From: Escherichia coli
GTDB taxonomy: Bacteria; Pseudomonadota; Gammaproteobacteria; Enterobacterales; Enterobacteriaceae
Assembly: GCF_003019035.1 (NCBI RefSeq)
Contig: NZ_CP027447.1
Direction: 5' to 3' (one strand)
DNA: 64,000 nt
This document shows positions 2,638 to 53,201 of this stretch, piece by piece (the stretch's first letter is position 1; each line of letters begins with the position of its first letter). The notes under the pieces are model-generated. The model did no database searches and had not been told where the DNA came from. It saw only the letters and a program-made list of their open reading frames with translations. Position numbers and translations under genes: made by a program.

Positions 2638-3638
2638 AAACAGAACGTATTCTCGGTGCTCTTTATGGGCAGGCGTTAGGGGATGCGATGGGGATGCCCT
2701 CCGAGCTTTGGCCGCGCAGTCGCGTCAAAGCACACTTTGGCTGGATTGACCGTTTTCTGCCTGGGCCAAAGGAGAATAACGCAGCCTGTTATTTTAACCG
2801 CGCCGAATTCACCGACGATACCTCGATGGCGCTGTGTCTGGCGGATGCGTTACTGGAACGTGAAGGCAAGATCGATCCGGATCTGATTGGGCGTAATATT
2901 CTCGACTGGGCGCTGCGTTTCGACGCCTTTAACAAAAACGTACTAGGTCCGACCTCGAAGATTGCGCTTAACGCCATTCGCGACGGTAAACCCGTTGCTG
3001 AACTGGAAAATAACGGCGTGACCAACGGCGCAGCGATGCGCGTCTCGCCATTAGGTTGTTTGCTTCCGGCGCGCGATATTGACTCTTTTATTGATGATGT
3101 GGCGCTGGCCTCCAGCCCGACACATAAATCCGATCTGGCGGTTGCGGGGGCGGTAGTCATCGCATGGGCGATTTCTCGTGCCATTGACGGAGAAAGCTGG
3201 TCAGCGATTGTTGATTCACTGCCTTCAATTGCGCGACATGCTCAACAAAAACGCATCACTACCTTCAGCGCCTCACTGGCAGCACGTCTGGAGATTGCGC
3301 TGAAAATTGTGCGCAATGCCGATGGCACCGAATCCGCCAGCGAACAGCTTTACCAGGTCGTTGGCGCAGGTACCAGCACTATTGAGTCCGTTCCGTGCGC
3401 CATTGCGCTGGTTGAACTGGCACAAACCGACCCGAACCGTTGCGCCGTCCTGTGCGCTAACCTTGGCGGCGACACAGACACCATCGGTGCTATGGCGACG
3501 GCAATTTGTGGCGCGTTGCATGGCGTTAACGCTATCGATCCTGCGTTAAAGGCGGAACTGGATGCAGTAAATCAGCTTGATTTCAACCGCTATGCCACGG
3601 CGCTGGCGAAATATCGTCAACAACGGGAGGCGGTATGA
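2634..3638 (+). CDS. yegU: ADP-ribosylglycohydrolase-family protein, 334 aa
   Basis: ATG overlaps yegT stop (ATGA, translational coupling); recalled as E. coli YegU (ADP-ribosylglycohydrolase family). Confidence 0.9.
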   Translation: MKTERILGALYGQALGDAMGMPSELWPRSRVKAHFGWIDRFLPGPKENNAACYFNRAEFTDDTSMALCLADALLEREGKIDPDLIGRNILDWALRFDAFNKNVLGPTSKIALNAIRDGKPVAELENNGVTNGAAMRVSPLGCLLPARDIDSFIDDVALASSPTHKSDLAVAGAVVIAWAISRAIDGESWSAIVDSLPSIARHAQQKRITTFSASLAARLEIALKIVRNADGTESASEQLYQVVGAGTSTIESVPCAIALVELAQTDPNRCAVLCANLGGDTDTIGAMATAICGALHGVNAIDPALKAELDAVNQLDFNRYATALAKYRQQREAV

Positions 3639-7975: not shown

Positions 7976-8062
7976 GATAATAAATCGCAGAGGAGGATGG
8001 TAATGTCCAGCGCACGCGTTGTAAACGGGGAAAAACGGCGGTATTACAATAACGTTGTGAAA

Positions 8063-8335
8063 TTATTTGATATAAGAATCCAGCACCTTCAGAACGACAT
8101 CCAGATCTTCTTCACGTTTTAGCTCATCCCCCTGGTGAACGATGTGTTCCGTCAGATGGCCTTTAATCACTTCCCGCATCAGACCGTTTACCGCGCCACG
8201 GATAGCAGCAATCTGTTGTAAAACTGCAGCGCATTCATGCGGTTCGTCGAGCATTTTCTTGAGCGCCACGACCTGGCCCTGAATCTTACTGGCACGCGCT
8301 TTCAGTTTCTGTTTATCACGGATGGTATGAGACAT
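8063..8335 (-). CDS. rcnR: Ni(II)/Co(II)-responsive transcriptional repressor (CsoR/RcnR family), 90 aa
   Basis: 90-aa all-helical ORF divergent from rcnA; recalled as RcnR. Confidence 0.93.
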
Positions 8336-8383
8336 GGCAACACCTGGTTAACAAGAATATGAAAAATCATAGCACTATTAATC

Positions 8384-8418
8384 TACTGGGGGGTAGTATC
8401 AGGTACTGGGGGGGAGTA
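8384..8418. promoter_or_regulatory. Two tandem RcnR operator sites (TACT-G6/7-N-AGTA) in the rcnR-rcnA divergent promoter region
   Basis: TACTGGGGGGTAGTA (8384-8398) and TACTGGGGGGGAGTA (8404-8418): G-tract flanked by TACT/AGTA inverted repeat, matching the described RcnR recognition motif. Confidence 0.8.
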
Positions 8419-8455
8419 GAATCAGATTGCCGAATTAATACTAAGAATTATTATC

Positions 8456-9280
8456 ATGACCGAATTTACAACACTTCTTCAGCAAGGAAACGCCTGGTTC
8501 TTCATCCCCAGCGCCATCTTACTTGGTGCGCTTCATGGCCTGGAACCGGGGCACTCAAAAACGATGATGGCGGCGTTTATCATCGCCATCAAAGGCACCA
8601 TTAAACAGGCGGTGATGCTCGGACTGGCAGCAACCATTTCGCATACCGCAGTGGTCTGGTTAATTGCCTTTGGCGGGATGGTGATCAGCAAACGCTTTAC
8701 TGCTCAATCAGCAGAACCGTGGCTCCAGTTGATTTCCGCAGTGATCATTATTAGCACCGCGTTCTGGATGTTCTGGCGTACCTGGCGCGGCGAACGCAAC
8801 TGGCTGGAGAATATGCACGAGCATGATCATGAGCATCATCACCACGATCACGAAGATCACCACGACCATGGACATCATCACCATCACGAACATGGCGAGT
8901 ATCAGGATGCCCATGCACGAGCCCATGCCAATGACATTAAACGACGCTTTGATGGTAGAGAGGTCACCAACTGGCAAATTTTGCTATTTGGCTTAACCGG
9001 TGGCCTTATCCCCTGCCCGGCAGCAATTACCGTGCTGTTGATTTGCATTCAGTTGAAAGCCCTGACACTGGGCGCAACACTGGTCGTCAGTTTCAGCCTC
9101 GGCCTGGCGTTAACGCTTGTCACCGTAGGCGTTGGCGCAGCAATCAGCGTTCAGCAGGTCGCAAAACGCTGGAGCGGATTTAACACTCTCGCTAAACGCG
9201 CTCCCTATTTTTCCAGTCTGTTGATTGGCTTAGTTGGTGTGTATATGGGCGTACATGGCTTCATGGGCATAATGCGATAA
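8456..9280 (+). CDS. rcnA: Nickel/cobalt efflux membrane protein with His-rich cytoplasmic loop, 274 aa
   Basis: Polytopic membrane ORF with central His-rich segment (HEHDHEHHHHDHEDHHDHGHHHHHEHG) encoded by CAT/CAC-rich DNA ~8820-8900. Confidence 0.95.
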   Translation: MTEFTTLLQQGNAWFFIPSAILLGALHGLEPGHSKTMMAAFIIAIKGTIKQAVMLGLAATISHTAVVWLIAFGGMVISKRFTAQSAEPWLQLISAVIIISTAFWMFWRTWRGERNWLENMHEHDHEHHHHDHEDHHDHGHHHHHEHGEYQDAHARAHANDIKRRFDGREVTNWQILLFGLTGGLIPCPAAITVLLICIQLKALTLGATLVVSFSLGLALTLVTVGVGAAISVQQVAKRWSGFNTLAKRAPYFSSLLIGLVGVYMGVHGFMGIMR

Positions 9281-9490
9281 CTCAATCCTTTAGGCTTGCA
9301 TGTTATCTTCAGGATTCTTAAATCAGCTATTTCCGCTGACTCTCTGCTCGCTAAGGATGCTTTTAGGGCATCCTTTCATTTACACTTTTTACGAAATCAT
9401 GGGATCACTAACAAAATATCGCTTGTCAGTTATATTGTATGGCAGGAAAGATATGCGACTGATATTACAGATCCCCAAAGTGGAGAGTTT

Positions 9491-9829
9491 ATGACCATTA
9501 AAAATAAGATGTTGCTGGGTGCGCTTTTGCTGGTTACCAGTGCCGCCTGGGCCGCACCAGCCACCGCGGGTTCGACCAATACCTCGGGAATTTCTAAGTA
9601 TGAGTTAAGCAGTTTCATTGCTGACTTTAAGCATTTCAAACCAGGTGACACCGTACCAGAAATGTACCGTACCGATGAGTACAACATTAAGCAGTGGCAG
9701 TTACGTAACCTGCCCGCGCCTGATGCCGGGACGCACTGGACCTATATGGGTGGCGCGTACGTGTTGATCAGCGACACCGACGGTAAAATCATTAAAGCCT
9801 ACGACGGTGAGATTTTTTATCATCGCTAA
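9491..9829 (+). CDS. rcnB: Periplasmic Ni/Co homeostasis protein (112 aa, signal peptide)
   Basis: ORF-track entry 9296..9829 is an N-terminal extension; real start ATG 9491 preceded by GTGGAGAG RBS; product MTIKNKMLLGALLLVTSAAWA.. has a signal peptide; recalled as RcnB/YohN. Confidence 0.9.
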   Translation: MTIKNKMLLGALLLVTSAAWAAPATAGSTNTSGISKYELSSFIADFKHFKPGDTVPEMYRTDEYNIKQWQLRNLPAPDAGTHWTYMGGAYVLISDTDGKIIKAYDGEIFYHR

Positions 9830-9855
9830 AAAAAGCCCCCTCGGAGAGAGGGGGA
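9830..9855. terminator. GC-rich hairpin (CCCCCTC-GGAGA-GAGGGGG) between convergent rcnB and yehA; likely rho-independent terminator, strongest for the minus-strand (yeh) transcript
   Basis: 7-bp G/C stem 9836-9842 / 9848-9854 with 5-nt loop; A-tract on plus strand 5' side gives U-tract after the hairpin on the minus strand. Confidence 0.6.
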
Positions 9856-9910
9856 AATGCAAACACCTTGTTATTTTTTATTATTAGCCACTTGCTCGTC
9901 TTGCTTATTA

Positions 9911-10945
9911 TTAGTCGTATTTCACATTGATTAATGCGGTTGCCTCCAGTGCGCCAGATTTAACTTTGTTTGTATCGTAAACGTAGTAACTGGCCGTTAT
10001 CGGAATTGAAACCGTTGTATCTGTAAGTTTTGACTTTGCCGCAATTTCTTTTAAATTTGTATATCCTTTACTGCTGTTAGTGATATTTAAAAGTGTGACT
10101 GGCGTACCATTACTTTCAAGAATAAATCCTACGCCATTATCTTCCGCACCTTTCAGGATCGTGTTGCTGTTGGTTAACAAGTCAGAACTTGATAAATACA
10201 CCTGCATTTTCCGTGATGTTTGATTTTGTTGACCTAATAAGTTTTTACAACGCAGAACAATATCCCCTTTGTTACTATTTATTGTTGCTTTGTTACCTGT
10301 AGCTGGTAATTGTGAAACGGGAATACTCTCTAAAGTAATTAATAAATCGTCCGGTTTGCAGGTTGTGGTTATCGGGTTGTATGACAATGTCAGATTAAAG
10401 GAATAGACACCTGCATTTTGTGCCAATGCATTTCTGTAGCTATTTACACATGCATCCCATGACTTACCACCTAATAAACACAGTAGAAATTGTACTGCGG
10501 CACTCCCGCGTGTCGATGATGAAGCACTGGATAATGTCGCAACTCCATTAATCATCACTGAACCACCGCCTCCCGCAGAAACATTCACTTTTGCATTACT
10601 GGCCGCAGGTGTCACCGTTACCGAATAACCACTGGTGAAACTGGTCTGATTATTTGACAACGTAATGTTGTTTTTATTGGTCCATTCAAAATGTAAATTT
10701 AATTTAATGGTATCGTTATAAAGTCCAACAATAATATCCGACGGGCTCATAGGGGTGATAGTATTTGTACTCACGCATGACGAATCATTAAAATTATGCT
10801 CATATGTCGCCATTTGTGTTTGAGTAAGTGAAAAATCCCCCTGAACAACCAAATTGTGCTGAACAGATAACTCACTATAACATGCCGCATAGCTCACAGG
10901 CATAACCATCATCATTACTATAAATAGCATTATGCGAATTTCCAT
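9911..10945 (-). CDS. yehA: Fimbrial adhesin-like / tip subunit of Yeh chaperone-usher fimbriae, 344 aa
   Basis: Signal peptide, Ser/Thr/Asn-rich, AT-rich codon usage; last gene of yehDCBA cluster; recalled as YehA. Confidence 0.88.
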   Translation of the reverse strand: MEIRIMLFIVMMMVMPVSYAACYSELSVQHNLVVQGDFSLTQTQMATYEHNFNDSSCVSTNTITPMSPSDIIVGLYNDTIKLNLHFEWTNKNNITLSNNQTSFTSGYSVTVTPAASNAKVNVSAGGGGSVMINGVATLSSASSSTRGSAAVQFLLCLLGGKSWDACVNSYRNALAQNAGVYSFNLTLSYNPITTTCKPDDLLITLESIPVSQLPATGNKATINSNKGDIVLRCKNLLGQQNQTSRKMQVYLSSSDLLTNSNTILKGAEDNGVGFILESNGTPVTLLNITNSSKGYTNLKEIAAKSKLTDTTVSIPITASYYVYDTNKVKSGALEATALINVKYD

Positions 10946-10960
10946 AGAACCACCTGACTA

Positions 10961-13441
10961 TTACTGGCAAATATAATTTCTACTTTCATCAATCTCTTTA
11001 CCGAAGGTGATTGTGCATGAAAGCCCTTGTTGCTTATCAATTGCCACATTAACCGATGGCGGTACTTCATTGGTGCGAATAAATAACTGGCTTCCCTGGC
11101 CGACAACACCAATATTATGACCATGGATATCATTGACTTCATAACCAAACGTTAATGGTTGCCCATCCGCTCTTAACGCTTTTATAAACCATGGCTTGCG
11201 CTGATCGGTATCAAAATTAACCAGTACAACCGCGCCGCGATAAGGGGCGGCAATTTTCCGGTTGCCACGTAATTCTGCTTCGCTATCGCTTTGTGACACA
11301 TCCAACATCAGGTAATTTTCCCGATAAGGTGTCATTCCGTCATATACCACCACTCCATTACGGTTTGTTGTGTGATATTTTTGCCCATTGACATAAGCAT
11401 CTTTAATTCCTGGCGCATTCATCACAGCAAACGTTTCAGAAAGACGGTTTGCCAGATTAACGCCACCCGACCAGGCGACAATGCCCCCTGAAACACTGGC
11501 TCCAGCCTGTCGATAAGCACTCGACTGACTATAACTGCCATTCACTGTCGCAACCGGCGCGTTCCAGGTTAAATTCGCCCCAGCTGTCGTTTCATTTCCC
11601 TGATACTGATAACTCAGGTTGACCCCATAGTTAAACTGATCCCGGCTTCCAACGGTTCCTGATAATCCCGTATTATTTGAGGCAACCCCCTGATCATCAA
11701 ACGTCGTTGAGTTAGACATATATATTTGCCGACGAGGCGTCGTAACGTCATCACCCCAATCAAAGGGAATCGATATAAAAATATTAAAACGTTTCTCTTC
11801 ATGATGATTCTCGTCATAAGCCTGGCTTGCCGCGAGGGTATAGCTTATCCGTCGTAGGTTGTTGGAATAACTCAACTGATAATCCTTACTACTGCCGCTA
11901 CGCCCCCAGTAATCTCGCCATAACGTACTTAATGACACAGAACCCCAGCCTTCTGGCAATGACTGGCTCATATTAGCAGAAAAGCTATTTTTACGGCCAA
12001 AATCGTTCTGGTAATAATCGGCAATGTCATAGATATCGTTTTCATCACGGCGATAATTATCTTTATTGTTTGCCCAAACGTGATCGTTAAATGTCCGGTA
12101 ATCACGCGACGAATAACGCCAGGCCGCCAGACCAAAACGCGTCGACGTTTGGCTCACAAATTTGTTGTAGGCAATTTGATAACTTTGCCCGTCAAACACA
12201 TCGCCGTTGTCTTGTTTACTATGCGACTTCGTGGCATCGACGGAAATGGCACCAATGCGTGTATTCCAGCCAGTCCCCAAAGTGAACGCGTAATAATTAT
12301 TCGCGACCATCGATCCGCCATACAGCGTCAATAAGTTATTAAAACCATACTGATAACCCGCCTGAACAAAATCACTTTGTTTGCTCGCCCCTTCAATATG
12401 GCTACGACCTGCCGCAAAATCATATTTCGACACGCCGGGTTGCAGCATATTCGGCACTGCTGCATAAGGCACCAGATAGGTGGTTACCGAACCGTCCGCC
12501 TCTTTCACGCTGACATCAAGATCTGCTCCACCACCGGCCAACTGCAAATCTGTAATCGCAAACGGGCCAGGAGGAACCTCTTTCTGATAAACCACAAAAC
12601 CGTTCTGTTCAATAGTTACCAGCGCGTTACTCTGAGCAATCCCCTGCACCCGTGGCGTAAAATTCTGTTTCGAGTTAGGCAACATCTGCATATCACGAAA
12701 CAACCGCACACCGCTGAAGCGAACAGAATCAAAAATATCGCTTGATGTGTACATATCACCCACGCGAAGCGTGCCGAGAAGTTGGGCAAATCCACGTTCC
12801 AGATACAGGGTATTGCTTTTCCACACCCCTGGATTGCTATTTGTTTTACTGAAACTGGCATCAGAATGCAGTTGCCACCCCAGTAAGTTTAACCCGCTGT
12901 TAAAACGTACATATGTACTCTTGCTATTACCCGACGCTTTATAGTCGCTGTAATACTGACTCACATAATAAGAGGTATAAAACGCATTAATACCCCGCTC
13001 CCAGTTTTCCGGTGGAACATAGCCACTTTCCAGTTCTTCCACCCACGCCTGCGGGACACTGAAATCGAGACGAAAAACTCCGATATCCCAGGTATAGCTC
13101 CCACCCTGAACAAGTTGCTCAAATGTTAAACATTGCTTACCGCTGGCAAAGTTATCGGTATTAATGCCTAACCGCTTGATAATTTCCCTTGATAAACATG
13201 TTTCTTGCGGGTTGTCTTTAACAATAATCTCATATTTCCCGCGCCATTGCTTATTGACATAAATATCGATGTCATACTGCCCCGGCAAGGGTTGATTATC
13301 ATCAAGACGAATATTTGCAACCTGCTGGTCTTTCATTCCACCTATCATAAAATGGGTATCAAAGGTTTCTTCAGCTGCATAAGCTTCAATGCCGAGCAAT
13401 AACGCTACGATTGCTGATGCAAGTGGGGTCATTCTCAACAT
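10961..13441 (-). CDS. yehB: Outer-membrane fimbrial usher protein, 826 aa
   Basis: ORF-track start (TTG at 13456) rejected; ATG at 13439-13441 gives MLRMTPLASAIVALLLGIEAYA.. signal peptide; large beta-barrel usher-type protein. Confidence 0.9.
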   Translation of the reverse strand: MLRMTPLASAIVALLLGIEAYAAEETFDTHFMIGGMKDQQVANIRLDDNQPLPGQYDIDIYVNKQWRGKYEIIVKDNPQETCLSREIIKRLGINTDNFASGKQCLTFEQLVQGGSYTWDIGVFRLDFSVPQAWVEELESGYVPPENWERGINAFYTSYYVSQYYSDYKASGNSKSTYVRFNSGLNLLGWQLHSDASFSKTNSNPGVWKSNTLYLERGFAQLLGTLRVGDMYTSSDIFDSVRFSGVRLFRDMQMLPNSKQNFTPRVQGIAQSNALVTIEQNGFVVYQKEVPPGPFAITDLQLAGGGADLDVSVKEADGSVTTYLVPYAAVPNMLQPGVSKYDFAAGRSHIEGASKQSDFVQAGYQYGFNNLLTLYGGSMVANNYYAFTLGTGWNTRIGAISVDATKSHSKQDNGDVFDGQSYQIAYNKFVSQTSTRFGLAAWRYSSRDYRTFNDHVWANNKDNYRRDENDIYDIADYYQNDFGRKNSFSANMSQSLPEGWGSVSLSTLWRDYWGRSGSSKDYQLSYSNNLRRISYTLAASQAYDENHHEEKRFNIFISIPFDWGDDVTTPRRQIYMSNSTTFDDQGVASNNTGLSGTVGSRDQFNYGVNLSYQYQGNETTAGANLTWNAPVATVNGSYSQSSAYRQAGASVSGGIVAWSGGVNLANRLSETFAVMNAPGIKDAYVNGQKYHTTNRNGVVVYDGMTPYRENYLMLDVSQSDSEAELRGNRKIAAPYRGAVVLVNFDTDQRKPWFIKALRADGQPLTFGYEVNDIHGHNIGVVGQGSQLFIRTNEVPPSVNVAIDKQQGLSCTITFGKEIDESRNYICQ

Positions 13442-13456
13442 AGGCAGCTCCTGCAA

Positions 13457-14131
13457 TTAAATTTTGTCACTAATATAGTTGCCATGGTCATCGATAATGG
13501 TCAGATGCCAGTTATTCGCATTATTACTTTTGACATTAATACTCTGACTTTCTAAGGGGGCAATCATAATAGTTTCATAATTGACTTTGACATTATTAGC
13601 TTTGACATCCGAAATCGTCACCCAATTTGCTGAGTCATTTTTTATCACCAATCCATTGCCACTGCGATTTACCCGTAACTTTTTAAATGTCGCTTTATTT
13701 ACCGGTGCAATACCCGCAGGCCGGTAAAACAATTTGATTCTGTTTTGCATTGCAAATTTCAGTGCATTCTTGCCCTCTTGCTCTGGACTATTTGGTGGAA
13801 TATCCAGAACATTCAGATAAAAAATGCTCTCTTTATTAGTGGGCAGTTTATTCGGCATAATTTTGATTTTTACTTGCTGCCCGGAATTTGCCCCTATTTT
13901 TGCCACTGGTGGCGTTAACATGAAAGGAACCTGAATTTTTTCTGGTGGTAACGACGTATCACCATCATCAATCCACGCCTGCAGCAGCGAAGAACGGTTT
14001 CCCTGATTCATCAACTGCACCATCACTTCTTTATTTTCTGCCGGGTAAATAATACGCGTCCCGTAGATAACAATACCGGCATGTGCAGGAAGGACCATAG
14101 AAGAAATGAGTAAAGCAAATAATCCTTTCAT
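13457..14131 (-). CDS. yehC: Periplasmic fimbrial chaperone (PapD-like), 224 aa
   Basis: Signal peptide MKGLFALLISSMVLPAHA followed by chaperone-like sequence; sits between major subunit and usher genes. Confidence 0.88.
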   Translation of the reverse strand: MKGLFALLISSMVLPAHAGIVIYGTRIIYPAENKEVMVQLMNQGNRSSLLQAWIDDGDTSLPPEKIQVPFMLTPPVAKIGANSGQQVKIKIMPNKLPTNKESIFYLNVLDIPPNSPEQEGKNALKFAMQNRIKLFYRPAGIAPVNKATFKKLRVNRSGNGLVIKNDSANWVTISDVKANNVKVNYETIMIAPLESQSINVKSNNANNWHLTIIDDHGNYISDKI

Positions 14132-14150
14132 CTTAATGCCTCTTAAATTA

Positions 14151-14180
14151 AAAGGCCGCCATGGGGATAGCGGCCATGTT
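14151..14180 (-). terminator. Putative intra-operon hairpin/attenuator between yehD and yehC
   Basis: GGCCGC..(9 nt)..GCGGCC hairpin (14155-14175); on the minus strand it is followed by a U-rich tract (plus-strand AAAA/TTAAATTAA); such partial terminators after the major pilin gene are common in fimbrial operons. Confidence 0.4.
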
Positions 14181-14211
14181 TATTACCTGGAGAAACTTGA
14201 AATTTTATTTA

Positions 14212-14754
14212 TTAATCCTGCGCCACACGCATAACCAGAGAAGATAACACATCACCTGATTGCACTGAATTATCTGTCAGCTTCAGGTATTTTGCTTTAA
14301 ACGGAATAGCATATTGACCTTCCGCTGTTTTATAACTCTCAATGTTAAAAGGTGCAGAAACATCCAGGACATCGCTGTTATCACCTAAATAGAGATAGTA
14401 CCCCACGGTATCGTTGCTACTGGCTATCGCCTTATCGTTTCCGGTTATTTTATCGTTGGTAATCAACGAGAGTTTTACACCAGCAACTTCTTTCGGACAG
14501 CTAATTTTTAACATGCTGCTGGTTACACCGACTGCATCATCATAGGTCGAGTATTTAGCTTTACCTTCAAAGACAGTGGTTGGTACAGTTGGCATATTAA
14601 TACTTACTGAATCGCCACCCGCTTCGAATTTACACGGAGATTCTGCAATATTCCCTTTAATGGTTAATGTTCCGGTATCAACGTCTGCGGCAAATACCCC
14701 AGCGCTCATAAAAAAAGAAGAAAAGACAGCGGCAGCAATAATTGAACGTTTCAT
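14212..14754 (-). CDS. yehD: Fimbrial major subunit-like protein, 180 aa
   Basis: Signal peptide MKRSIIAAAVFSSFFMSAGVFA, pilin-like size and conserved Cys pair; first gene of the cluster with long AT-rich upstream region. Confidence 0.9.
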   Translation of the reverse strand: MKRSIIAAAVFSSFFMSAGVFAADVDTGTLTIKGNIAESPCKFEAGGDSVSINMPTVPTTVFEGKAKYSTYDDAVGVTSSMLKISCPKEVAGVKLSLITNDKITGNDKAIASSNDTVGYYLYLGDNSDVLDVSAPFNIESYKTAEGQYAIPFKAKYLKLTDNSVQSGDVLSSLVMRVAQD

Positions 14755-15049
14755 AATATGTTCCTTAATAAAATTTATTTTTTGGTTGTTAAGAGTCTGT
14801 ATCTCTTGGAAACAAATTTCTCACATCAAAAAAGTTGCTGCAATGTAAACATATTGTTTTATTGATTTAAAACAAATTAACTATTGCAATATAAATACAA
14901 CAAATACTTAAGCATATTAAATATTTATCACATCTATTAATTAATGCGGATTTTTGTAAATGGTATTATTGATATCAATAAAAAAGCTGAAATCATTCAC
15001 ACGAATGATTTCAGCTTTCTAAATCCGATTAAAAAACCAGGGTGGCAAA

Positions 15050-15331
15050 TTAATCGTAGCGATTTAACACGATTCGACGTTTGCTATCGCTACCTGCAAC
15101 AACCACTTCTGTCGTTACACCTTTGACTGGCGAAGAAACCTGATGACGGGTATCAACATCATACGTTAACTGACCACAATGCTGTTGAGGTTGACCATTA
15201 ACCATAGCCATACTGCATGTTGGGGGACTGATCCTGCCATTAATCGTTAATGTGGCAGTCTGTGAAGAGAACGCGGGAGAAGCCATTCCATAGGCAAGAA
15301 AAATAATTCCTGACAGCCAGTACTTATTCAT
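15050..15331 (-). CDS. yehE: Small secreted protein of unknown function (93 aa) upstream of the yeh fimbrial genes
   Basis: Signal peptide MNKYWLSGIIFLAYGMASPAFS; recalled as YehE. Confidence 0.8.
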   Translation of the reverse strand: MNKYWLSGIIFLAYGMASPAFSSQTATLTINGRISPPTCSMAMVNGQPQQHCGQLTYDVDTRHQVSSPVKGVTTEVVVAGSDSKRRIVLNRYD

Positions 15332-15593
15332 TGAACGTTATCCCTGTAGTAAAGGTTATGCCTGGATAGAATGAGTGCATAACAAACTATAGCTGTACAT
15401 CCACTACACAGCCACGAAGGATGATAATGAAGCATTGCCTGTACGATCAATCGACTTTATAGAGTTTCGGACGAAGGTCCGCAGAATATTTGCAGCATTA
15501 AATAAGTGTTCATTAATGCGGCAAAAACAAATACACCGCATCAATGTAACATCTCTGCGGTGTATGAAAAACAACCAAAAAGGTTAATACGCG

Positions 15594-16703
15594 TTAGACC
15601 GCGCGGAAGGAAATCTCGCCAGGAATGACTTCTCCCTGCCAATAAAGCTGGGCTGCAACGCGGTCAGCCAGCTGGCGGTAGATAGCGGTAAATTCGCTCT
15701 CCGGACGGCTGATAACCGTTGGCGTGCCTTTATCGAGATCTTCACGTAAGGAGATGTGTAACGGCATCTGCCCCAGCAACTGCGTGTGGTATTTCTCGGC
15801 CAGTTTCTCTGCACCACCGGTACCGAAAATCGGTTCATGGTGACCACAGTTACTGCAAATATGCACACTCATGTTCTCGACAATACCGAGCACCGGAACC
15901 TCGACTTTCTCGAACATCACAATGCCTTTTTTCGCATCGATCAACGCAATGTCCTGCGGGGTGGTGACCACTACCGCGCCAGTTACTGGAATGTTTTGTG
16001 CCAGTGTCAATTGAATGTCACCGGTGCCTGGCGGCATATCAAGCACCAGATAGTCGAGATCCGGCCACAAGGTTTCCTGCAACATTTGCATTAACGCCTT
16101 GCTCGCCATCGGACCACGCCACACCATCGCATTGTCGTCAGTGACCAGATAACCAATTGAATTGGTTGCAAGGCCATGAGACATAATCGGTGCCATGTGG
16201 GTACCGTCCGGCGAAGTTGGACGCTGATTTTCTGCGCCCAGCATGGTGGGGATTGATGGGCCGTAGATATCGGCGTCCAGAATGCCGACTTTCGCCCCTT
16301 CCGCCGCCAGTGCCAACGCCAGGTTTACCGCCGTGGAAGATTTACCCACGCCGCCTTTACCGGAACTGACCGCAATGATGTTCTTCACGCCATTAATACC
16401 CGGCTGATTCTTCACGCGTTTTAAGGTGGCGATATTGTGCGACAGTTTCCAGTCGATAGCTTTCGCCCCGGTGATACGCAGCAGTTCGGCGCTACATTGC
16501 TCTTTTAACTCTTCGAACGCGCTATGCCAGACGAATGGCATAACCAGTTCCACATGCAACGTGTCGTCCATCCAGGCGACATGGTGCAACGCTTTCAGCG
16601 TGGTGAGGTTATGCTTCAGGGTTGGGTGCTGAAAATTGGCCAGTGTCCCGGCGACCATTGCGCGCAAGGCTTCTGGTGATTTGGCCTGGGATTGTTCGTT
16701 CAT
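15594..16703 (-). CDS. mrp: Fe-S cluster carrier P-loop ATPase (Mrp/ApbC/NBP35 family), 369 aa
   Basis: Deviant Walker A SSGKGGVGKSSTAVNLA and CxxC motif (CSNCGHH); divergent from metG. Confidence 0.95.
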   Translation of the reverse strand: MNEQSQAKSPEALRAMVAGTLANFQHPTLKHNLTTLKALHHVAWMDDTLHVELVMPFVWHSAFEELKEQCSAELLRITGAKAIDWKLSHNIATLKRVKNQPGINGVKNIIAVSSGKGGVGKSSTAVNLALALAAEGAKVGILDADIYGPSIPTMLGAENQRPTSPDGTHMAPIMSHGLATNSIGYLVTDDNAMVWRGPMASKALMQMLQETLWPDLDYLVLDMPPGTGDIQLTLAQNIPVTGAVVVTTPQDIALIDAKKGIVMFEKVEVPVLGIVENMSVHICSNCGHHEPIFGTGGAEKLAEKYHTQLLGQMPLHISLREDLDKGTPTVISRPESEFTAIYRQLADRVAAQLYWQGEVIPGEISFRAV

Positions 16704-50119: not shown

Positions 50120-51556
50120 TCAGCGTTTGTAACCCCCGCCCAGCGCACCGGTGAGTTGAATGGAAGCATCCAGCCACTGTCCCTGCAAGAGCAGACCATT
50201 GGCCCGCTCACGCAGCGCGGGGATTCTGGCTTCGCTGACGCGGGAACCAGCAATGATGCCCGCGTTAAAGCGCGCCTGCGCAAGACCTACCACACGCAAG
50301 GCATCGTGCTCAATTTGCGCCTGATGCTGGTTTTTCTCCGCCAGTGTCTGAACCTGGCTGGCCGCCCGCGCCACGTCATTTACCGCTTCAACCACCGCTT
50401 TGTTGTAGCTGGCGATAGACAAGTTGCTTTCGGCTTTTGCAATATCGAGGTTGGCGTTAAGACGACCACTATCGAAAATGGGTAGCGTCAGGCCTGCCGT
50501 AACGCCCATTTGCTGCGCGGAATGACGGAACAGATCGCTTAAGTGCAACGCATCCTGTTGCAGGAAGGCCATCAGGTTGATGTCAGGATAAAATGCCGCT
50601 TTTGCCGCATCAATAGTGCTTAACGATGACTCAACGTACCAGTGCGCCGCCTGCAAATCTGCCCGCCGGGCCAGTAAGGAGTACCCCAGTTCATCAGGAA
50701 GCTGGCTTGCCACTTTCGGCAACGCGACCGGATTAAGCTTCAATGCCTTTGTCTGGTGATTTGTAAGTGCGCTTAACCGTGCCTCAATAATTTTCATTTT
50801 CCCCGCGACATCGTTGAGCTGCTGCCGGGTTTTGCTGGCATTAATATCGGTTTCCACACCTTCAACTGCAGAAGTAATCCCGTTCTGATATAGCTGGCGA
50901 TCGGTGGCGATAATGGTGTTCTGCTCTTTTTCGATTTGCTGTAAGACCGTGTTTAACGCCGCCTGGGTTTGCCACTCCCAGTACAGGCGGGCTACGCTGC
51001 CAGCCAGCAATTGGCGGGTTTGCTCGCGTTCCGCCGCCCGTGCTTTAACCGTACCGAGGCGAGCAGTAACCTCCGCCCGATTCTTTCCCCAGATATCGAG
51101 ATGCCAGCCCGCCGTTAAGCCAAAAGTACCGTTGGTGTACCACGGACCGGTCGTACCTGCGGCAGGATCGTTCAGAGCAAACGGCCCCATTAACCCTTCT
51201 GCAGACATTTTTTGCCGCTCCATATCCGCAGAAAAGTCGATCTGCGGACCATCCTGAGTGGCAACTGCCTTCGCCTGGGCTTCAGCCAGCTGAATGCGCT
51301 GTTCAGCCACCTGCATATCCGGTGCGTTCTGTAGTGCGTTATTAATTAATGAGGTGAGTTGATTATCGTGATACTCCAGCCACCATTGGCTGTCTGGCCA
51401 ACCATTTTTCAGCGCCGTGGGTAATGCGGTGTCAACTTGTGTCGCGGGTGTTTGCTGGCTTAACGCCTGGCGGGTTTCATGCATAGGCGCACACCCGGCC
51501 AGCATCAGTAACAGCGGAAAACAGGCGATGGCTGGATAAAAAGAATCACGATTCAT
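50120..51556 (-). CDS. mdtQ: Outer-membrane efflux lipoprotein (OMF/NodT family), intact ~478 aa
   Basis: Continuous ORF; start at ATG 51554-51556 gives signal peptide with lipobox (..FPLLLMLAGC); recalled as a pseudogene in K-12 but uninterrupted here. Confidence 0.85.
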   Translation of the reverse strand: MNRDSFYPAIACFPLLLMLAGCAPMHETRQALSQQTPATQVDTALPTALKNGWPDSQWWLEYHDNQLTSLINNALQNAPDMQVAEQRIQLAEAQAKAVATQDGPQIDFSADMERQKMSAEGLMGPFALNDPAAGTTGPWYTNGTFGLTAGWHLDIWGKNRAEVTARLGTVKARAAEREQTRQLLAGSVARLYWEWQTQAALNTVLQQIEKEQNTIIATDRQLYQNGITSAVEGVETDINASKTRQQLNDVAGKMKIIEARLSALTNHQTKALKLNPVALPKVASQLPDELGYSLLARRADLQAAHWYVESSLSTIDAAKAAFYPDINLMAFLQQDALHLSDLFRHSAQQMGVTAGLTLPIFDSGRLNANLDIAKAESNLSIASYNKAVVEAVNDVARAASQVQTLAEKNQHQAQIEHDALRVVGLAQARFNAGIIAGSRVSEARIPALRERANGLLLQGQWLDASIQLTGALGGGYKR

Positions 51557-51779
51557 GGGGGAATAATCAGGTAAGAAAAGGTGCGCGGAGATTACCGTGT
51601 GTTGCGATATATTTTTTAGTTTCGCGTGGCAATACATCAGTGGCAATAAAACGACATATCCAGAAAAATATACACTAAGCGAATGATATCTTCCGATTTA
51701 TCTTAATCGTTTATGAATAGCGGCAAAGGGCTTCGTTTTTTCCTATACTTATTCAGCACTCACAAATAAAGGAACGCCA

Positions 51780-51863
51780 ATGAAAATTATACTCTGGGCT
51801 GTATTGATTATTTTCCTGATTGGGCTACTGGTGGTGACTGGCGTATTTAAGATGATATTTTAA
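51780..51863 (+). CDS. yohP: Small membrane protein, 27 aa
   Basis: AAGGAA RBS; translates MKIILWAVLIIFLIGLLVVTGVFKMIF (single TM helix). Confidence 0.8.
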   Translation: MKIILWAVLIIFLIGLLVVTGVFKMIF

Positions 51864-52230
51864 AAATCAGATATGGCATATAAGTTGTCAGGTCAGTAAC
51901 TCGATATTTTGTGTACTTGATTTACAAACAGCTCCGGTGTTGGTGGCGTCAAAATCGCTGAAGCGTTCCCCGAAGGCCGGGGCAGCCCACATGGATGTGG
52001 GCTGAGGGCGCGTCTTACAAGGACGTTACCTCGCGCCCGACCCGGTAGCCGAAGGGGATAAGCTGAAGGTACCGCGCAGCGGCGATTTTGTTCGCCAGAG
52101 CCCGGGGGTGCAGGGGGAGGAGGCGATTGTCCTCCCCCTGCGCGCTCCTTGCGCCAGTGGCAATATGTGGCTTAGCTCATGAAAGGAGCGCAACAAGATG
52201 ATGAAGCTAAATAAGCGATTCATTGTCTCA

Positions 52231-52265
52231 GATAAGCTGCGATTCCACTATTATCGCAGCTTATC
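52231..52265. repeat. Perfect 12-bp inverted repeat spanning the dusC stop codon
   Basis: GATAAGCTGCGA-ttccactatta-TCGCAGCTTATC; 3' arm lies inside the last codons of dusC; no flanking T-tract on either strand. Confidence 0.6.
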
Positions 52266-53201
52266 GATATCAATTGCCTGAATAGCCCTTGCAATATCAG
52301 GGGAATTATTCAACACCCGAACATGCTGAAATAATTCTGTTGCTTCATCGTATTCTTTACGCAAATAACTCAACCACTGTTTAATCCGCGCTACGTGATA
52401 TAACCCGGTATCGCCCTGCTTTTCCAGACGGGTATATTTTTGCAGCAAAGCAACCACCTCCGGCCACGGCATTCGCGGTTCGTTATATTTCACCACACGG
52501 CTCAGGTTGGGAATATTGAGCGCCCCGCGACCAATCATCACCGCGTCACAGCCGCTGATCGCCATACACTGTTGCGCGCTCTGCCAGTCCCAGATTTCAC
52601 CGTTGGCAATCACCGGAATATTCAGCCGTTGGCGAATCTCACCAATCGCCTGCCAATCAATATGCTCCGCGCGGTAACCCTGCTCTTTTGTCCGCCCATG
52701 CACCACCAGCTCCGTAGCGCCAGCCTGTTGAACCGCATCGGCGATTTCAAATTTCTTCTCACCGCTGTCCCAGCCCAGACGCACTTTCACACTGACGGGC
52801 AAATGCGCCGGTACAGCTTCGCGCATCGCTTTTGCACCCTGATAGATGAGTTCAGGATCTTTGAGTAACGTCGCCCCACCGCCGCTACCGTTAACCGTTT
52901 TCGACGGGCAGCCGCAATTGAGATCCACGCCCCAGGAACCTAACTCGACTGCACGGGCGGCGTTCTCTGCCAGCCATTGTGGGAACTGGCCTAACAACTG
53001 CACGCGCACCAGCGTACCGGATGGTGTCCGGCTGGCGTTTTGTAGCTCAGGGCAAATGCGATGAAAGACTTTTACCGGCAGCAGTTGATCCACCACGCGG
53101 ACAAACTCGGTGATGCACAGATCGTAGTCGTTAACTTCGGTCAGTAATTCCCGCACCAGAGAGTCAAGCACACCCTCCATCGGAGCCAGTAACACACGCA
53201 T
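52251..53201 (-). CDS. dusC: tRNA-dihydrouridine synthase C, 316 aa
   Basis: Start at ATG 53199-53201 ([33 protein letters not shown]..), ORF-track extension rejected; Dus-family TIM-barrel sequence. Confidence 0.93.

Follow-up and report, generated by a model that had tools for sequence, protein, structure and literature searches.

The window, the whole 64,000-nucleotide stretch of Escherichia coli DNA analyzed in this study (contig NZ_CP027447.1), contains the yohP gene on the plus strand and the dusC gene on the minus strand, and these two genes converge on a 387-bp spacer. The features of this locus are listed in Table 1. The spacer and its flanking sequence are 100% identical to those of E. 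coli strain SCU-301. Positions 51924-52196 have a GC content of 62.6% and positions 51940-52161 one of 66.2%, as compared to 32% and 39% for the two flanks and 50.7% for the whole window. An earlier reading of this DNA, made from its letters without database searches (the sequence-only reading), described the spacer as a single hairpin-dense, GC-rich element. The spacer is indeed GC-rich and contains many hairpins, but it is not one element, because it is composed of a 273-bp dispersed repeat and two AT-rich, allele-specific flanks. The first ~45 nt of the left flank (51864-51923) are homologous to the K-12 spacer in unchanged orientation, and the final ~13 nt are part of a segment whose orientation is opposite to that in K-12. 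The C-terminus encoded by dusC is ...IDIDKLR in the window, as compared to ...IDIEKL in K-12, and this window-type dusC allele is found in 1998-2002 of the 5426 complete E. coli genomes (~37%), including those of S88, ST131 and O157:H7. The small open reading frame at 52198-52281, which is located behind a Shine-Dalgarno-like AAGGAG, is rejected as a gene, because it spans the edge of the repeat into the unique flank. Its counterpart has 3, 9 or 12 codons in other copies, and the Klebsiella copies have no ATG at that place.

Table 1. Features of the yohP-dusC locus in the window
Feature	Position	Strand	Description and basis
yohP CDS	51780..51863	+	Upstream neighbour, small membrane protein of 27 aa; list of open reading frames; named yohP in SCU-301 and K-12
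AT-rich left flank	51864..51923	.	32% GC; alignments with K-12 and composition
TRIP1c repeat core	51924..52196	+	273 bp, 62.6% GC; the G-rich 'sense' strand is the plus strand of the window
222-bp near-perfect repeat (RRS-dusC as defined by Pham et al.)	51940..52161	+	PMC11194060; common to the lysO and dusC copies
Hairpin 1, CAGCCCACAT/ATGTGGGCTG, cap loop CAUGGAUG	51983..52004	+	Inverted repeat; consensus helix 7
Hairpin 2, GGGCGCG/CGCGCCC, inner tip ACA(A/G)GGA(C/U)GU	52008..52037	+	Arms 52008-52014 and 52031-52037; consensus helices 8 and 9
G-run tract GGGGGTGCAGGGGGAGGAGG	52104..52123	+	Regular-expression scan; K-12 motif from PMC11194060
Hairpin 3, perfect 12-bp stem GCAGGGGGAGGA/TCCTCCCCCTGC	52110..52141	+	Inverted repeat; consensus helix 11; 5' arm inside the G-run tract
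Hairpin 4, GCGCTCCTT...AAGGAGCGC	52142..52191	+	Inverted repeat, closing stem with variable interior; consensus helix 12
Right flank, window-type allele only	52197..52230	.	Contains the start of a non-conserved 27-codon open reading frame, 52198-52281
13-bp inverted repeat GATAAGCTGCGAT/ATCGCAGCTTATC	52231..52265	-	Arms 52231-52243 and 52253-52265, 9-nt loop; outside the TRIP1 repeat
dusC CDS, tRNA-dihydrouridine(16) synthase	52251..53201	-	List of open reading frames; annotation

The repeat core aligns end to end with both K-12 copies of a published repeat, TRIP1a and, in reverse complement, TRIP1c. It is 91.4% identical over 302 nt to the K-12-lineage copy located between aqpZ and lysO. It shares the yohP/mdtQ-dusC locus, ~91-93% identity over ~270 bp, the GC-rich multi-hairpin layout and the G-run tract with K-12 TRIP1c/RRS-dusC. 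K-12 has copies at three places, which are lysO/aqpZ, yohP/dusC (the reverse complement of the window copy) and putP/efeU (an internally deleted copy of ~145 bp). This set of loci identifies the lysO/aqpZ, putP/efeU and yohP/dusC copies as TRIP1a, TRIP1b and TRIP1c respectively (PMC10888264). According to the locus description in the same paper, TRIP1c is flanked by mdtQ (yohG)/yohP and dusC (yohI), and the same neighbours flank the repeat in the window. Thus, the window copy has the homology to TRIP1a and TRIP1c over ~265-273 bp, the locus, a GC content in the range of 62-65%, the structure potential and the G4 tract by which this family is recognized. The TRIP1 set was first listed by Rudd in 1999 and was surveyed by Li et al. 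in 2024 (PMC10888264). RRS, the 'replication risk sequence', is the 222-bp near-perfect repeat of Pham et al. (PMC10287960, PMC11194060), and this 222-bp unit was mapped onto the window from the block of near-identity between K-12 TRIP1a and TRIP1c. The object is therefore not an unrecognized one, as the sequence-only reading had taken it to be, but has been published both as TRIP1c (Rudd 1999; Li 2024) and as RRS-dusC (Pham 2023, 2024). As judged from homology and position, the GC-rich stretch between yohP and dusC is this already described element, in an orientation inverted relative to K-12, and its annotation as such is warranted. The family consists of a few ~270-bp GC-rich intergenic repeats of Escherichia, Klebsiella and related genera. 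The locus as a whole is very probably explained by the TRIP1c/RRS-dusC repeat, inverted here, together with a separate inverted repeat in the flank that would form a 3' hairpin of the dusC mRNA.

Several differences separate the window copy from K-12 TRIP1c/RRS-dusC. It is reversed with respect to its neighbouring genes, and therefore also to the replication fork. Hairpin 3 contains two A-T pairs that are compensated, the G-run tract has C replaced by A at two positions, and the flanks, including the dusC C-terminus and the 13-bp inverted repeat, are different. The segment that carries the repeat and is inverted relative to K-12 is ~310 bp long, and its flanking genes are identical. The GC skew of the plus strand is negative in 14 of the 15 intervals into which the window was divided, as is expected for the left replichore of K-12. 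The inversion and the negative GC skew together suggest that the G-run strand is the leading-strand template here, with the replication strand being assigned from GC skew and synteny with K-12. The aqpZ-lysO copy of SCU-301 is likewise inverted relative to K-12, and the same allele is present in strain 779.

At both full copies in K-12, the G-run strand serves as the template of the lagging strand. The activity of RRS is reported to be exerted at the DNA level, such that the unwound template folds and lagging-strand synthesis is blocked (PMC10287960, PMC11194060, bioRxiv 10.64898/2026.06.16.732529), and the exposed RRS strand folds and stops Pol I, II and IV in vitro. According to these K-12 experiments, the fork unwinds the duplex, the lagging-strand template, once exposed, folds into a G-run/hairpin structure, and the folded template blocks the lagging-strand polymerase and thereby leaves a gap to which SSB and RecA bind. 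The RRS gaps in K-12 are roughly 0.3-2 kb in length and are bound by SSB and RecA. The two main K-12 copies are located ~650 kb on either side of dif, flank the Ter domain and influence chromosome supercoiling. At least one RRS copy is conditionally essential (PMC11194060), and deletion or inversion of both copies alters genome-wide supercoiling. In single-molecule work, a gap is formed at essentially every encounter when the G-run strand is the lagging-strand template, whereas with the C-rich strand in that role the gaps are smaller and arise at ~66% of encounters. In the engineered 'double-inverted' strain of K-12, neither RecA nor SSB peaks were seen. The orientation found in the window would be the one with weaker or absent gaps in these K-12 experiments, and the isolate is, to judge from its two inverted copies, a natural counterpart of the 'double-inverted' strain.

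The 'native' orientation of RRS, in which the G4 strand is the lagging-strand template, is found neither for the yohP-dusC copy nor for the aqpZ-lysO copy here. The orientation polymorphism itself is already published, with 2952 forward and 2789 reverse copies for TRIP1c and 3448 forward and 1255 reverse copies for TRIP1a (Li et al., PMC10888264). Its bearing on the RRS model is what we infer from it, namely that the native orientation characterizes the K-12 allele and not the TRIP1/RRS family. That both Ter-flanking copies have here the orientation treated as non-native in the RRS papers may be of interest to those who work on RRS.

The four strong stem-loops reported in the sequence-only reading, which are hairpins 1 to 3 and the inverted repeat over the dusC stop codon, are all found in the sequence where it had placed them. 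It is also correct that these stem-loops are neither intrinsic terminators nor REP sequences. No terminator-like site is detected on either strand of 51600-52500, and the REP consensus GCC(G/T)GATGCG(G/A)CG is not matched with up to two mismatches within 51000-53000. Exact REPs or REPs with one mismatch occur at other places in the window. One promoter-like site is detected around the element, which is the level expected by chance. The 351-nt stretch is predicted to fold as RNA with an energy of -176.7 kcal/mol for the plus strand (z -8.6; none of the 100 shuffled sequences folds as well) and -154.8 kcal/mol for the minus strand (z -8.2). The 222-bp unit is predicted to fold as single-stranded DNA with energies of -67.2 and -63.7 kcal/mol for the plus and minus strands (z -5.4 and -5.9) respectively. 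The G-run tract GGGGGTGCAGGGGGAGGAGG differs from the G-quadruplex motif of K-12, GGGGGTGCAGGGGGCGGCGG, by two C-to-A changes. These changes keep the four G-runs, and only a G-quadruplex of the two-tetrad type is possible. This two-tetrad potential is kept in the copies inspected by eye, including the most divergent ones. The family is described as having a single tract of this kind, confined to the sense strand; in the window copy, the other strand has one weaker pattern of the G2 type. The 3' arm of hairpin 4 resembles a Shine-Dalgarno sequence, yet it is paired.

The comparative alignment that had been proposed as a check of the stems was made with 34 copies of the family from Escherichia, Klebsiella, Pseudocitrobacter and some metagenome-assembled contigs. 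The stems are kept in these 34 copies and compensatory changes are present. The consensus fold contains 75 pairs in 12 helices, and 99.1% of the cells are paired. Seventeen of the 75 pairs are changed on both sides (144 cells), and the observed values are attained by none of 500 shuffles, a result that is not a probability, because the sequences are related and the structure is derived from the same sequences; the contrast with slid controls is still large. When the 3' partners are slid by 1-3 columns in these controls, pairing falls to ~40% and the number of compensated pairs to 0-2. Hairpin 1 (helix 7) has three pairs with compensatory changes, and its loop CAUGGAUG is unchanged in all 34 copies. 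The inner pair of hairpin 2 covaries, being A-U in 19 copies and G-C in 15. Hairpin 3 (helix 11) has four covarying pairs, which include both A-T pairs of the window that are C-G in K-12, and G-C to A-U changes are found in hairpin 3 of Klebsiella aerogenes. A G-quadruplex would be indifferent to changes in the C-rich arm, and it is therefore hairpin 3 itself that is under selection. The internal sequence GGGAUAAG is invariant or nearly so, with one Klebsiella copy having GGGAAAAG. An invariant loop on a covarying stem is usually the mark of sequence-specific recognition. The combination of covarying stems with an invariant loop indicates that the repeat is under selection as a folded single strand, whose acting form may be either RNA or single-stranded DNA. 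The compensated hairpin of the G-run tract and the constancy of the loops from Escherichia to Klebsiella together point to selection for one particular fold that has a specific partner. The covariation of hairpin 3 within the G-run tract and the invariant loops are additions to the accounts of RRS and TRIP1 consulted here.

The energy of the consensus fold is -115.9 kcal/mol for the G-rich strand, as compared to -101.3 kcal/mol for the other strand. Wobble intermediates in the shared helices are found mostly on the G-rich strand, at ~7 positions as compared to 3 after allowing for prediction bias. This asymmetry is suggestive of the G-rich strand as the acting strand, and is compatible with RNA and single-stranded DNA alike.

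A rival reading is that the conserved product is an RNA with a defined structure, made from the G-rich strand in the same orientation as yohP as a 3'-UTR-derived or read-through RNA, whose two hairpins with GGA loops would bind a protein such as CsrA and which would be an enterobacterial relative of the TwoAYGGAY motif. The covarying stems and the (near-)invariant loops CAUGGAUG and GGGAUAAG of the 34 copies, together with the better consensus fold and the larger number of wobble intermediates on the G-rich strand, are in favor of such an RNA, although G.T wobble on one strand fits folded single-stranded DNA equally well. The tip of hairpin 2 in K-12, UACAGGGAUGU, which we take to be equal to the SELEX consensus of CsrA, is counted in its favor as well. 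A stable fold as RNA has likewise been predicted (Li et al., PMC10888264). However, the flanks contain no promoter-like or terminator-like site above chance, the orientation relative to the neighbours varies by strain and locus, so that there is no constant transcription context, and the K-12 aqpZ-lysO copy is antisense to both of its neighbours. The structured RNA proposed in the sequence-only reading agrees with the selected fold, but a fixed 3'-UTR role is argued against by the orientation to yohP and dusC, which differs between strains, and by the lack of a promoter and a terminator. A search of the literature found no report of a transcript or of CsrA binding at the yohP-dusC locus.

When Rfam is searched at a permissive E-value, as the same reading had suggested, no family scores above its threshold. 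The best match is TwoAYGGAY (RF01731), which aligns over the full model on the G-rich strand with 28.4 bits for the window copy and with 30.6 and 33.1 bits for two other copies, as compared to a gathering score of 43 bits. The Klebsiella copies do not match this model. TwoAYGGAY is the sole Rfam family that aligns reproducibly, on the correct strand and over the full model; the other Rfam matches are noise from eukaryotic miRNA and snoRNA families. TwoAYGGAY was described from human-gut sequences, gamma-proteobacteria and Clostridiales, with its function unassigned, and AYGGAY loops have been proposed as CsrA sites (PMC4333381). TRIP1 resembles it in that two neighbouring hairpins, of which the first has an AUGGAU loop, are enclosed by a long closing stem, and genuine members of TwoAYGGAY also form inverted pairs in intergenic DNA. 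The loop of hairpin 1 is AUGGAU in all copies, and that of hairpin 2 is AAGGAC here and AGGGAU or AGGGAC elsewhere, with a purine at position 2. TRIP1 differs from TwoAYGGAY in that its second loop is AAGGAC or AGGGAY, instead of AYGGAY, and also in that it has an extra 3' domain (hairpins 3 and 4) and scores of 28-33 bits, which are below 43. The true members, which come from metagenomes, score 100-149 bits and are often present as divergent inverted pairs. A GC-rich subfamily of ~220 nt among them has an overall layout like that of TRIP1, including a 3' GGGGG hairpin, but a model built from this subfamily and run against the window gives TRIP1 10.9 bits (E 2.3, rank 5), which is noise. Homology to TwoAYGGAY therefore lacks statistical support, and the resemblance is a lead, rather than evidence of membership. 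This resemblance to an orphan motif, though below threshold, is a by-product of possible interest. A sequestering small RNA of the CsrB/CsrC type is rejected, because the CsrB, CsrC and Rsm families of Rfam give no match at E up to 10 and the G-rich strand of the core contains only six GGA motifs, two of them in hairpin tips. Taken together, a CsrA-binding RNA related to TwoAYGGAY and transcribed with yohP is quite improbable.

A wider form of this proposal is that selection keeps a specific fold of the G-rich strand, as RNA or single-stranded DNA, with the loops CAUGGAUG and GGGAUAAG being read by a partner, for instance CsrA or a DNA enzyme that binds hairpins, and that TRIP1 is an enterobacterial branch of TwoAYGGAY. 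This combination is considered to be unlikely. If it were correct, genomes with both copies reversed would mean that the lagging-strand gaps are an allele-dependent by-product, and the G-quadruplex or a generic obstacle to polymerases would not be what selection preserves.

The TRIP1c/RRS-dusC repeat is widely distributed. A query with the spacer finds matches in 5425 of the 5426 complete E. coli genomes. The number of places per genome ranges from 1 to 8, and its median is 3. One chromosome-sized record of Klebsiella pneumoniae has 13 places, and the family is also seen in Citrobacter among the matches in a plasmid collection. A scan of species-representative genomes with a strict 24-base pattern, in which other genera are under-sampled, is positive for E. 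coli, E. albertii, E. whittamii, cryptic Escherichia, Klebsiella pneumoniae and two Pseudocitrobacter species. No match to the element is found among 50,697 records of a phage collection, and a phage origin is rejected for this reason. A plasmid-borne mobile element is also rejected, because all matches in the plasmid collection are typed 'non-mobilizable' and several of them lie in Mb-sized records. In one plasmid segment that was inspected, the element is surrounded by the chromosomal genes efeUOB, putP and putA.

These numbers of places also bear on whether TRIP1 is, or recently was, a non-autonomous mobile repeat, either MITE-like or transposed as a folded single strand, the structure of which is read by a recombinase or transposase. 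In that case, where the copies lie and which way they point would reflect past insertions, rather than host function. The 1-8 places per E. coli genome and the 13 places in the Klebsiella pneumoniae record fit this proposal, as do the tandem copies in L007 and the internally deleted derivative between putP and efeU. The Klebsiella copies, which have conserved extensions, are nested between REP-like units and are sometimes tandem, form an arrangement that is compatible with past mobility. An invariant loop with a covarying stem is moreover the pattern that is selected by hairpin-recognizing DNA enzymes. Both orientations are found at the same two loci, and the reversed copies of both loci share a haplotype of the 5' domain and a motif in the 3' flank. 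The forward copies share another haplotype, and strain E69 is a mosaic. This distribution of haplotypes suggests that there may be two old allele classes, which have been homogenized by gene conversion. When TRIP1a recombines with TRIP1c, the Ter region is inverted as a whole (PMC10888264). A flip in place through this inversion is ruled out by reasoning, because it cannot flip a copy relative to both of its flanks. Against mobility, the inversion junctions of both loci have no convincing terminal inverted repeats or target-site duplications, and neither a coding element related to the family nor a copy on a phage or on a genuinely mobile plasmid was found. In addition, 99% of the TRIP1 copies of E. 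coli are located at five fixed loci (PMC10888264), and K-12 has at least one copy that is conditionally essential (PMC11194060). Present or recent mobility of TRIP1 is therefore considered to be rather doubtful.

TRIP1 resembles several other repeats of intergenic DNA. Like REP/BIME (PU) sequences, it is dispersed, intergenic, GC-rich and hairpin-forming, and the Klebsiella copies lie between REP-like units, but it lacks the REP consensus, is approximately seven times longer and is present in a handful of copies, instead of hundreds. The pilE-associated G-quadruplex of Neisseria gonorrhoeae is a short, single G-quadruplex that drives pilin recombination, rather than a 270-bp multi-hairpin repeat, and to our knowledge it has no sequence similarity to TRIP1. 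The two are alike in being programmed, strand-specific, foldable DNA, and the authors of the RRS studies cite the pilE G-quadruplex as a gap trigger that is needed for the antigenic variation of pilin. The BoxC/PIT repeats, which form intrastrand triplexes, also have a G-rich/C-rich mirror-like tract in a dispersed intergenic repeat, which corresponds to GGGGGAGGAGG...CCTCCCCC in TRIP1. A triplex of this type is rejected for TRIP1, because it has two blocks, instead of three, and because the K-12 allele GGGGGCGGCGG is not homopurine. The arms of TRIP1 are Watson-Crick partners that are kept by compensation.

The inverted repeat at 52231-52265 lies outside the TRIP1c/RRS-dusC repeat. It had been described in the sequence-only reading as a perfect repeat with 12-bp arms over the dusC stop codon; its location and perfect pairing are confirmed, and its arms are one base pair longer, 13 bp. 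The right arm covers the last four codons of dusC (DKLR) and the first base of the stop codon. The predicted folding energy is -20.2 kcal/mol (z -5.8). The inverted repeat is present at one place per genome, only in the 2002 of the 5426 genomes with the window-type allele. The search for further copies of the palindrome that had been suggested gives two matches in the window with up to two mismatches, both of which are its own arms, as compared to ~1.9 expected. In other strains, the arms have G-to-A and T-to-C transitions, which produce A.C mismatches on the plus strand and U.G pairs on the dusC-sense strand. The variant hairpin has energies of -17.9 kcal/mol on the dusC-sense strand and -14.4 kcal/mol on the other strand, and that of O157:H7 has -17.3 kcal/mol. 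Strain E69 has one further transversion, which is disruptive.

The perfect 13-bp arms with a 9-bp spacer are what would be expected if the inverted repeat were a double-stranded DNA site of a dimeric protein or a dispersed palindromic signal. However, one of the arms is coding sequence, the copies in the window are not in excess, and each of the 2002 genomes has the repeat at a single place. In addition, the substitutions in the arms destroy the dyad symmetry, whereas on the dusC-sense strand the arms stay paired through U.G. The earlier proposal of a protein-binding palindrome does not agree with a single-copy sequence of one allele, the substitutions of which keep pairing on the dusC-sense strand only, and a protein site or dispersed signal is hardly credible here. 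Instead, the inverted repeat most likely forms a hairpin, protective or terminating, at the 3' end of the dusC mRNA, an assignment that rests on a small sample of substitutions, three transitions and one disruptive transversion. Because this hairpin is not followed by a U-tract, it is more likely to be a stabilizer than a canonical terminator. The corresponding position in K-12 is occupied by a weak hairpin that is rich in A and U and has a similar loop, CACTAT.

The genome of strain SCU-301, to which the dusC spacer of the window and its flanks are identical, carries a second full copy of TRIP1 (replication risk sequence, RRS) in the aqpZ-lysO spacer, and a copy of this type is also present in strain 779. 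The aqpZ-lysO copy of SCU-301 is oriented opposite to that of K-12, as is the dusC copy, and its G-run tract is shortened, reading CCAGGGGCAGGGGCGGCGG. Because both Ter-flanking copies are inverted relative to K-12, the G-run strand is the leading-strand template at both. The repeat is reversed in place with conservation of the gene-proximal flanks, both at the dusC locus (window ~51911-52221 versus ~3110-3400 of comparison sequence L001) and at the aqpZ-lysO locus (L002 2969-3355 versus the strain 779 sequence, L005). Neither a terminal inverted repeat nor a target duplication is found at the flipped repeat of either locus in these two comparisons. The core haplotypes are split by orientation, such that one is common to the reversed copies and another to the forward copies; E. 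coli E69 is mosaic.

Coordinates of the features
Feature	Sequence	Position	Strand
Second full TRIP1/RRS copy, aqpZ-lysO spacer	L012 (SCU-301)	11452-11721	
aqpZ-lysO-type TRIP1/RRS copy	L005 (strain 779)	2003-2274	
Tandem TRIP1 copies, Klebsiella	L007	1482-1782 and 1919-2219	
TwoAYGGAY pair	L049	302-470 and 699-866	(-) and (+)
TwoAYGGAY pair	L063	3555-3719 and 3882-4046	(-) and (+)
TwoAYGGAY pair	L068	1-152 and 436-605	(-) and (+)
GC-rich metagenomic family member	L056	669-891	
GC-rich metagenomic family member	L058	1440-1662	
GC-rich metagenomic family member	L059	856-1078	
GC-rich metagenomic family member	L087	193-415	
GC-rich metagenomic family member	L133	1025-1247	reverse complement
GC-rich metagenomic family member	L156	1-212	reverse complement
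27-codon ORF with SD-like AAGGAG then ATGATG, TRIP1 3' edge	window	52184-52281	(+)
mdtQ	window	50120-51556	(-)

The Klebsiella copies (L007; L025-L034) are bracketed by REP-like units (GCCGGGTGGCGGC...CCCGGCC). On both the 5' and the 3' side they continue for about 45-70 nt in conserved sequence that the E. coli copies lack. In the genome-contig search, exact matches to the TRIP1 pattern also come from four assemblies that bear the names Desulfacinum, 'Proteobacteria bacterium', Sporobacter termitidis and Bacillus sp. (L014, L017, L021, L024). These assemblies are likely contaminated, judging from the resemblance of the sequences and their flanks to E. coli or Klebsiella and from the shortness of three of the four contigs.

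Genuine RNAs of the Rfam motif TwoAYGGAY (RF01731) score 93-149 bits in gut-metagenome contigs, where they form divergent inverted pairs with a spacing of 160-280 nt in intergenic regions adjoining ordinary metabolic genes. A GC-rich metagenomic family of ~220 nt, with a long closing stem, hairpin loops CAGGAUG and CAUGGAUG, and a 3' hairpin AAGGGGG...CCCCCTT, is matched in part by RF01731 (47-48 bits in L056 and L058, the two members scanned). In overall layout it is like TRIP1, but no sequence homology between them is detectable.

The 27-codon ORF extends into dusC, which lies on the opposite strand. It is probably spurious, because it differs in all other TRIP1 copies and because its SD-like sequence is predicted to be base-paired within helix 12, the closing stem of hairpin 4. 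The neighbouring mdtQ, a pseudogene in the K-12 MG1655 annotation, is intact in the window and in SCU-301. Elsewhere, window 8000-16000 has a GC content of 0.44, as compared with 0.51 window-wide, and a strongly negative GC skew; this region is possibly horizontally acquired DNA.
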